DNA of 64,000 nucleotides, taken from Escherichia coli (GTDB lineage Bacteria > Pseudomonadota > Gammaproteobacteria > Enterobacterales > Enterobacteriaceae). Made by a program: the position numbers. Shown here one piece after another: positions 30,001 to 33,000 of this stretch. The number at the start of each line of letters is the position of its first letter. Position 1 is the stretch's first letter. The DNA is taken from assembly GCF_002854065.1 (NCBI RefSeq), contig NZ_CP024152.1. One strand, written 5' to 3'.

Positions 30001-33000
30001 CCCTGACATCGTCCGGTAATCCTTCCCAGCGACGCTGTTCAGTACCGCTCTGCAGCCAGAGTTCATGCAGCATCAGGCAGTTTTGTTCATCCAGTAGCAC
30101 ACCGTTCTGCAGGTGTGTCAGCCAGCGTGTGAACGCGATATTCTCCGGCGATACAACACCACGTCCGGCAGCCGTCAGTCCGGGGCACGGTTCAAACTGC
30201 ACATCTTCGTGGTCTGCAGAAGTCCGGCACTTCCGGCCAGAAACAGCTGAATACCTTCATTTGTGGCGCGGCGATAAAACGGTGTGACTGCGCCGCTGGC
30301 CAGTCGTTTAATCTCAGCGATCTGTGCCGGTTCACCAGAAAAATACATACGATTCGAGCACCAGTTTGGCATGGGAATTCTCCTCTCACATGCGGCCTCC
30401 ATCAGGCCGTGCCGCACCTGTAACCGGGCGACCGCATACGAATGCAGGTGCGGCCCCGAAGCCGCAGCGCGTGGAGGAGGAACGACGAAACGTGACCGGG
30501 TGAGGAGGCCGGCGACAGCGACACACTTGCATCGGATGCAGCCCGGTTAACGTGCCGGCACGGCCTGGGTAACCAGGTATTTTATTCACAGAACCGTGCG
30601 CAAAATGCTGTGGATAAGCTGAACACAGCAGTCCACAGCAGGCATACAGCCACACTCTCAGAGAATTGAGCGCTTTTTAGTCACAATAATGACATTTGAC
30701 TGTGTGTGGATTCAGTTATTAGAATACTGTATATGCATACAGCAACAGAAAAGGGAGATGAGAACATGATCCGCATTGAAATTCTTTTCGACCGCCAGAG
30801 CACAAAAAACCTCAAATCAGGCACACTTCAGGCGCTACAGAATGAAATCGAACAACGTCTGAAACCACACTACCCGGAAATCTGGCTGCGTATAGACCAG
30901 GGCAGCGCCCCGTCTGTATCTGTCACAGGAGCCCGCAACGACAAGGATAAAGAACGTATCCTGTCTCTGCTGGAAGAAATCTGGCAGGACGACAGCTGGC
31001 TGCCTGCAGCATGAGTACCGTTTATCACCGTCCGGCTGACCCTTCAGGCGATGACAGTTACGTGCGCCCGTTGTTTGCCGATCGTTGCCAGGCCGGTTTT
31101 CCTTTCGCCTGCCACTGATTATGCTGAGCAGGAACTGGATCTGAACAGCTATTGCATCAGCAGACCTGCAGCCACCTTCTTTCTGCGCGCCAGCGGTGAA
31201 TCGATGAACCAGGCTGGCGTGCAGAATGGTGATCTGCTGGTAGTGGACAGGGCCGAAAAACCACAACACGGGGACATCGTTATCGCTGAGATCGACGGTG
31301 AGTTCACCGTCAAACGACTGCTGTTGCGCCCACGCCCGGCACTGGAGCCGGTTTCAGACAGCCCGGAGTTCCGCACACTGTATCCGGAAAACATCTGTAT
31401 TTTTGGTGTTGTCACTCACGTGATACACAGGACGCGGGAGTTACGCTGATGTTTGCACTGGCTGATATCAACAGTTTCTACGCCTCATGTGAAAAAGTTT
31501 TCCGCCCGGACCTTCGCAACGAACCGGTCATCGTACTCAGCAATAACGATGGCTGTGTGATCGCGCGCAGCCCGGAGGCAAAAGCCCTTGGCATCAGAAT
31601 GGGGCAGCCCTGGTTTCAGGTGAGACAAATGCGCCTGGAGAAGAAAATACATGTATTTTCCAGCAATTATGCGCTGTACCACAGCATGAGCCAACGGGTT
31701 ATGGCTGTTCTGGAGTCGCTTTCTCCCGCAGTTGAGCCCTACTCAATTGATGAAATGTTCATTGATTTGCGGGGGGTGAACCGTTGCATCTCTCCGGAGG
31801 TTTTGGTCATCAGCTCAGGGAACAGGTAAAGAGCTGGACAGGACTCACCATGGGGGTGGGCATTGCGCCTACAAAAACGCTGGCTAAAAGTGCACAGTGG
31901 GCAACAAAGCAATGGCCACAGTTTTCCGGTGTGGTCGCGCTGACGGCAGAAAACCGTAATCGGATCTTGAAGCTACTGGGGCTGCAGCCAGTTGGTGAGG
32001 TCTGGGGAGTAGGACGCAGACTGACGGAAAAGCTGAATGCACTGGGTATTAACACAGCACTGCAGCTGGCGCAGGCTAACACGGCATTCATCCGGAAAAA
32101 CTTCAGCGTCATTCTTGAGCGTACGGTACGCGAACTCAACGGCGAGTCCTGCATATCCCTGGAAGAAGCACCACCGGCAAAACAGCAGATTGTCTGTAGT
32201 CGCAGTTTTGGTGAACGAATCACAGACAAAGATGCCATGCACCAGGCTGTTGTTCAGTATGCAGAGCGGGCCGCAGAGAAACTACGTGGGGAGCTTCAGT
32301 ATTGCCGGCAGGTGACGACATTTGTACGGACATCCCCCTTTGCAGTAAAAGAACCCTGTTACAGCAATGCCGCTGTGGAAAAGCTTCCATTGCCCACACA
32401 GGACAGCCGGGACATTATTGCCGCCGCATGCAGAGCCTTAAACCATGTCTGGCGTGAAGGGTACCGCTATATGAAGGCAGGAGTCATGCTGGCTGATTTC
32501 ACACCATCGGGTATAGCGCAGCCGGGATTATTTGATGAAATCCAGCCCCGTAAAAACAGTGAAAAGTTAATGAAAACACTCGATGAACTGAACCAGTCGG
32601 GAAAAGGGAAAGTGTGGTTTGCGGGGCGAGGAACCGCCCCTGAATGGCAAATGAAACGGGAAATGTTGAGTCAGTGTTATACAACTAAATGGCGAGATAT
32701 TCCCCTGGCCAGGCTGGGTTAGTTCAGTCATCTCCGAACATATTTTCAGCGTTTCTTCTGGTCTGGTCTTCACCGTCATTTCTCGACAGACTCTGCTCTG
32801 TAAGAGGAGTACTGCAATCCACAGACGTATGGAGACCAGATTGTTTTTCCAGTAATTCAAGCAATTTCTTTTCAACCGAAAAAGCACCTGGTATCACGCT
32901 GGAAATCACCTTATTAATATCATCCAGAGTCGTATTTTCTGTCAGTAACTCCGATATCAGCAAAGGAAGACGTTTATCTATAGCTGCAAACGCCGCACCA

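Follow-up and report, generated by a model that had tools for sequence, protein, structure and literature searches.

The window analyzed here (the whole stretch of 64,000 nt from Escherichia coli contig NZ_CP024152.1) carries an impC-impA-impB operon in which, as written, impA and impB are broken, as is the neighboring DUF1281 gene; no damage is seen in impC, in the promoter or in either LexA box. Each of the three interrupted genes has a one-base indel, and it is chiefly the close spacing of these indels that hints at how they arose. We infer as the likeliest origin a locally poor consensus in the deposited assembly, which we hold to be the probable cause, if by no means the certain one. If it is not such an assembly artefact, the feature is a pseudogene array of very recent date, private to this plasmid and set in a well-known operon.

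Plasmid backbone and control of the imp operon

The window represents the backbone of a conjugative plasmid of the IncI complex (IncI-gamma/K1 type), as indicated by near-identity and synteny with typed I-complex plasmids. Its nearest relative is E. coli plasmid pWP2-W18-CRE-03_2 (NZ_AP021916.1; typed as IncI-gamma/K1, MOBP, MPF_I), to which positions 1-63701 (63.7 kb) align in reverse orientation with 99.964% identity. With the shufflon left out, the two plasmids differ by 13 substitutions and four one-base indels. All 13 substitutions, found over 63 kb, are synonymous or intergenic, and at least seven of them are shared polymorphisms. One of the indels, at 16034, is an allele common to many plasmids, which leaves three that are private to the window. 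This common allele is the T4 form of a T3/T4 length polymorphism (16031-16034) ahead of a small HTH regulator gene, in the stretch separating its Shine-Dalgarno sequence from its ATG; here it is NZ_AP021916.1 that deviates.

At 63161-63701 and 63682-64000 collinearity with the nearest relative is interrupted, and the alignment continues in a different arrangement; this region is the shufflon, a multiple-inversion system beside pilV and an rci-type recombinase gene, present here in another inversion state. Off-diagonal BLAST matches reveal two pairs of direct repeats in the leading region, one of about 500 bp (18363-18856 and 24704-25200) and the other of about 350 bp (19546-19899 and 26493-26844), the members of each pair being 90-92% identical.

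The imp operon lies in the leading/maintenance region of the plasmid, flanked by the divergent DUF1281 gene on one side and the parM/stbB partition genes on the other. For its three genes in the relatives, RefSeq gives an 82-aa DinI-like protein, a umuD of 145 aa and a umuC of 424 aa. The coordinates of the features are collected in Table 1.

Table 1. Features of the imp operon and the adjacent DUF1281 gene in the window.
Feature	Position	Strand	Description
DUF1281 gene (normally 300 aa)	29447..30348	-	Divergent from impCAB; -1 frameshift
DUF1281 deletion site	30208..30209	+	TTCGTGG against TTCAGTGG in relatives; A lost; not a homopolymer
Putative sigma-70-like promoter of impCAB	30696..30725	+	TTGACT, 18 nt, TAGAAT; 10/12 in a consensus scan
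Distal LexA box (predicted)	30698..30717	+	Reverse complement AACTGAATCCACACACAGTC; identical to the second impCAB SOS box of pTF2
Proximal LexA box (predicted)	30725..30744	+	TACTGTATATGCATACAGCA; one mismatch to the pTF2 box TACTGTATATACATACAGCA; CTG-N10-CAG kept
impC (DinI-like, 82 aa)	30766..31014	+	Intact; Pfam DinI, E = 8e-18
impA (UmuD-like, normally 145 aa)	31011..31449	+	+1 frameshift; 35-aa product ending at 31118
impA insertion site	31103..31105	+	TTT against TT in relatives; codon 31/32
impB (UmuC-like Y-family polymerase, normally 424 aa)	31449..32722	+	-1 frameshift
impB deletion site	31801..31804	+	T4 against T5 in relatives; codon 118/119

The promoter-like site (30696-30725) overlaps both LexA boxes, and these predicted sites, by their match to those of the IncI1 plasmid pTF2, mark impCAB as a LexA-regulated (SOS) operon. 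In pTF2 the strong impCAB box has a heterology index of 1.60 and the second box one of 13.49, and the ImpC, ImpA and ImpB proteins go up in an SOS-constitutive strain (PMC12211044). The translation of impC is identical to WP_000618110.1 of the relatives. The original prediction, which had described an operon with the LexA box, impC and impA all intact, was correct for the first two; impA carries a +1 frameshift of its own at 31103-31105.

Three interrupted reading frames

It had been claimed that the UmuC-like frame of impB is divided by a single missing base into ORFs at 31449-31829 and 31784-32722. Both ORFs (126 and 312 aa) are present exactly as claimed, and alignment confirms the cause: with the T put back, ImpB is a protein of 424 aa identical to WP_015058887.1. 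Aligning the window base by base, first with three relatives and afterwards with the complete nearest plasmid, mapped the frameshift and moved the deletion from the proposed position near 31787 (tgc-atc) to a site some 15 nt further downstream (31801-31804). Relatives read GGAGGTTTTTGGTC here and the window GGAGGTTTTGGTC, one T having gone from a T5 run, so that the earlier description of the site as lying outside a homopolymer does not hold. Nor does the proposed junction VNRC/HLSGGFGHQLR; the native protein reads NRCISPEV/FGHQLREQVK across the break.

The N-terminal ImpB fragment consists of 118 native residues followed by eight that are out of frame. The Pfam IMS domain is divided between the two ORFs, the first matching profile positions 2-109 and the second 116-146; in the second, IMS_HHH, IMS_C and DUF4113 come next. 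Repaired ImpB scores 790.7 bits against the NCBIfam UmuC model NF002955 (cut-off 431) over profile positions 1-422 of 422, which places it in the UmuC family; the N-terminal fragment, with 216.7 bits, stays under the same cut-off. As written, no single uninterrupted frame spans palm, fingers, thumb and little finger, the break lying inside the IMS domain, and impB is a pseudogene of the UmuC/ImpB family. The N-terminal fragment keeps the catalytic carboxylates D6 (ALADINSF) and D101-E102 (YSIDEMF), in UmuC numbering assigned by homology; missing from it are the remainder of the palm as well as thumb, little finger and C-terminal domain. A sequence search for a solved structure of UmuC found none, the best PDB match being DNA polymerase IV (7yll).

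Two readings would leave impB functional, and we give hardly any credence to either. The first is that impB really ends near 31829 and that the two ORFs are separate functional genes encoding a split polymerase. The C-terminal fragment (31850-32722, 290 aa, within the 312-aa ORF) does exceed the NCBIfam UmuC cut-off by itself (532 against 431 bits), but the break falls within the IMS catalytic domain (profile 109/116), the last eight residues of the first ORF are out of frame, and in every close relative one ORF of 424 aa encodes the protein. An end of the intact gene near 31829, allowed for in the original prediction, is thus refuted by alignment to the relatives. The second is that programmed -1 frameshifting or transcriptional slippage bypasses the break and yields full-length ImpB, which is exceedingly improbable. 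Its sole support is that the break sits in a short run of T; against it, G GUU UUG is not a slippery heptamer of the X XXY YYZ type, RNA polymerase slippage is appreciable only at runs far longer than four T, and thousands of relatives use one frame, so that no conserved recoding signal exists. Moreover, impA is independently broken.

The start of impA at 31011 overlaps the stop codon of impC. Here the change from CCTTCG to CCTTTCG brings a stop codon (31116-31118) into frame after 35 codons, and removal of one T gives WP_000109071.1 exactly. Repaired ImpA scores 143.4 bits against the NCBIfam UmuD model NF007621 (cut-off 110). As written, no intact frame runs from the start codon through the S24 domain; the Peptidase_S24 match falls in the downstream frame (ORF 31051-31449) and not in that from the ATG at 31011. 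The break comes directly past the predicted A28/G29 self-cleavage site, and the entire ImpA' portion is therefore lost from the normal start.

The insertion also generates an ATG-initiated ORF of 132 aa (31051-31449), composed of 18 unrelated residues and ImpA residues 33-145. It covers roughly the ImpA' part, in a weak ribosome-binding context, and if the indels are real its putative product could act as a cleavage-independent mimic of ImpA'.

The third frameshift, in the DUF1281 gene, had been overlooked. It cuts the gene into ORFs at 29447-30202 and 30175-30417, and restoring the A gives the 300-aa protein of the relatives exactly. A metagenome contig (L034) considered as a second carrier has the same 251-aa product but lacks the deletion at 30208. 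The suggestion that DUF1281 is the toxic gene '810' of pMS7163B was also rejected: '810' encodes 88 aa and lies near ardA, and DUF1281 corresponds to gene '010'.

Release of LexA would still drive transcription of the operon as written, and ImpC could be made. ImpA would end after 35 codons and ImpB after 118 native residues; with neither subunit complete, no Pol V-like translesion polymerase (ImpA'2-ImpB) would be assembled. The earlier picture of an SOS-induced operon yielding a truncated polymerase was accordingly sound in respect of LexA control and too narrow in confining the damage to ImpB, both subunits being missing from the sequence as it stands.

Assembly error or loss of function

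All three private indels of the window lie inside 1,596 bp, a clustering for which simulation gives P = 0.0018. Neutral decay of this 1.6 kb would predict about 0.3 substitutions, and none is observed alongside the three indels. An error in the consensus is favored because the private indels cluster and look unfiltered, striking three conserved genes in succession, while the substitutions look filtered by selection. In addition, one hit already abolishes the polymerase, and selection therefore leaves hits in both impA and impB unexplained. In I-complex plasmids impCAB is under purifying selection, with dN/dS values of 0.001 for impA and 0.11 for impB, and is conserved in more than 80% of these plasmids (PMC10286972). 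The poor consensus might stem from an unpolished or gap-closed segment, in which case the operon of the real plasmid would probably be intact. Sequencing error, which the original prediction had named as its alternative, is a live explanation.

The alleles themselves are rare. No copy was found of the impB T4 allele among 2,360 matching PLSDB plasmids, of the impA TTT allele among 2,351, or of the DUF1281 deletion allele among 4,703; the best PLSDB matches for each were 99.2% identical with one base of difference in length. Neither the full set of 72,556 plasmids nor the 5,426 complete E. coli genomes, from which 4,134 records matched, contains any of the three. Scans for the specific alleles in collections of genome, metagenome and viral contigs gave no match, and a run-length-tolerant scan of the contig collections returned ten contigs, all wild type at G6 and T5.

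The impB T4 allele recurs on a single Logan contig of 1,253 bp (SRR26800289), which spans 31084-32337 and matches the window throughout except that the impA insertion is missing. It starts right after a GATC site and ends within a C5 run, and may be noisy-read data or derive from the same isolate. Sister Logan contigs with a G6 to G5 change were marked as noisy-read, since their indels occur only in long homopolymers. Being short and noisy-looking, the SRR26800289 contig is given limited weight. A further explanation, that the contig edges coincide with those of a repeat also present as an IncF umuC remnant, which would account for unpolished errors, is not supported by the coordinates (31542-32665 for the remnant against 31084-32337).

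The competing explanation is a real and recent loss of function, covering all three indels or at least the T5 to T4 change in impB, by which the SOS polymerase and DUF1281 would have been switched off and a young, LexA-regulated pseudogene array left behind, producing only ImpC and fragments. We regard this as possible though somewhat doubtful. Speaking for it, and against an error, all 100 runs of at least six bases agree with the reference, and the indels are found at reference run lengths of 1, 2 and 5, avoiding the long homopolymers that are the usual place of sequencing errors; their profile is unlike textbook homopolymer error. The impB T4 allele is also present on the independent read-derived contig mentioned above. 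Overexpression of impCAB is toxic, so that its loss could be favored, and after conjugation a TraDIS screen showed an enrichment of about 5-fold for transposon insertions in impA and impB (LogFC 2.2-2.3; PMC10286972). Natural disruptions of impB are seen elsewhere: a G6 to G7 change, an IS3-family insertion and an IS5-truncated remnant. Weighing the other way, a real loss needs three independent indels in 1.6 kb with no substitution there and no amino acid change elsewhere in 63 kb, and the second hit in the same polymerase operon would bring no added benefit. The impA and DUF1281 alleles are found nowhere else in the searched collections, and the Logan contig with T4 has a noisy-read look and is without the impA insertion.

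If any of the three is real, it is most likely the impB deletion. That all are real, with separate knock-outs of impA, impB and DUF1281 in a very short time, appears unlikely. Were it true, it would point either to strong selection against a toxic SOS-induced module or to one localized burst of indel mutagenesis, for example by error-prone repair synthesis across about 1.6 kb; in the case of selection, a so far unrecognized functional link between DUF1281 and impCAB would have to be included. Should the indels be real, the host would be without the plasmid-borne SOS mutagenesis and UV protection usual for I-complex plasmids, which is of minor relevance to work on plasmid-driven mutability and the evolution of resistance.

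Returning to the favored reading of a poor consensus, clustered private indels set against purely silent substitutions offer a practical flag for local assembly errors that requires no reads. The record should mark impA, impB and DUF1281 as frameshifted pseudogenes, or be corrected. The C-terminal impB ORF is above the UmuC cut-off, and automatic annotation could call this dead fragment a working polymerase.

Comparison with known systems

Disruptions of imp/umuC genes in other plasmids resemble that of the window in the gene hit and in their place in the N-terminal third, no more than about 50 nt from the window's site. They differ in that each of those plasmids has suffered one event only, which left impA and DUF1281 intact, whereas the window has a private 1-nt indel in every one of three adjacent genes. 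Three of them are apparently real, namely the G6 to G7 change on a 32-kb contig (SRR25006850), the IS3-family insertion (ERR16027000) and the IS5-truncated impB/umuC remnant in the IncF plasmid pJJ1887-5. A G6 to G5 change in two further contigs (ERR13326701 and ERR13326777) was discounted as a natural event and is probably a noisy-read artefact; both contigs start inside an A run and have indels only in long homopolymers, T8 and C6 being miscounted. The contig disruptions, the G6 to G5 change included, correspond to window positions 31757-31776, about 50 nt or less from the T4 site. No specific account of impB frameshifts in IncI plasmids turned up in a search of the literature.

The impC-impA-impB operon is a well-known SOS-regulated plasmid homologue of umuDC plus dinI, and nothing in the window is new in kind. 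It is the classical imp operon, whose first description concerned the IncI1 plasmid TP110 (Lodwick et al. 1990, cited in PMC12211044). The gene order and the overlapping stop and start codons of the window are those of impCAB in TP110, pTF2 and pMS7163B. As in impCAB of the I-complex, the LexA boxes lie close to the promoter (the strong one with a single mismatch, the second unchanged) and the operon is set between a DUF1281 gene and parM/stbB; dozens of I-complex plasmids have RefSeq proteins identical to the repaired ones. What sets the window apart from these is the private one-base frameshift in both impA and impB.

The chromosomal counterpart is umuDC of E. coli, which encodes DNA polymerase V. 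The UmuD'2C system is under LexA control; its UmuD-like subunit cleaves itself when stimulated by RecA*, and its Y-family polymerase is error-prone. It is by analogy with this system that we infer the mechanism of the imp products. ImpB matches the UmuC model end to end and ImpA the UmuD model; like UmuD, ImpA has an S24 peptidase domain, and its predicted cleavage site is followed by a GFPSPA motif. Unlike chromosomal umuDC, the imp operon is plasmid-borne and has an extra upstream gene, the DinI-like impC, and the copy described here is disrupted.
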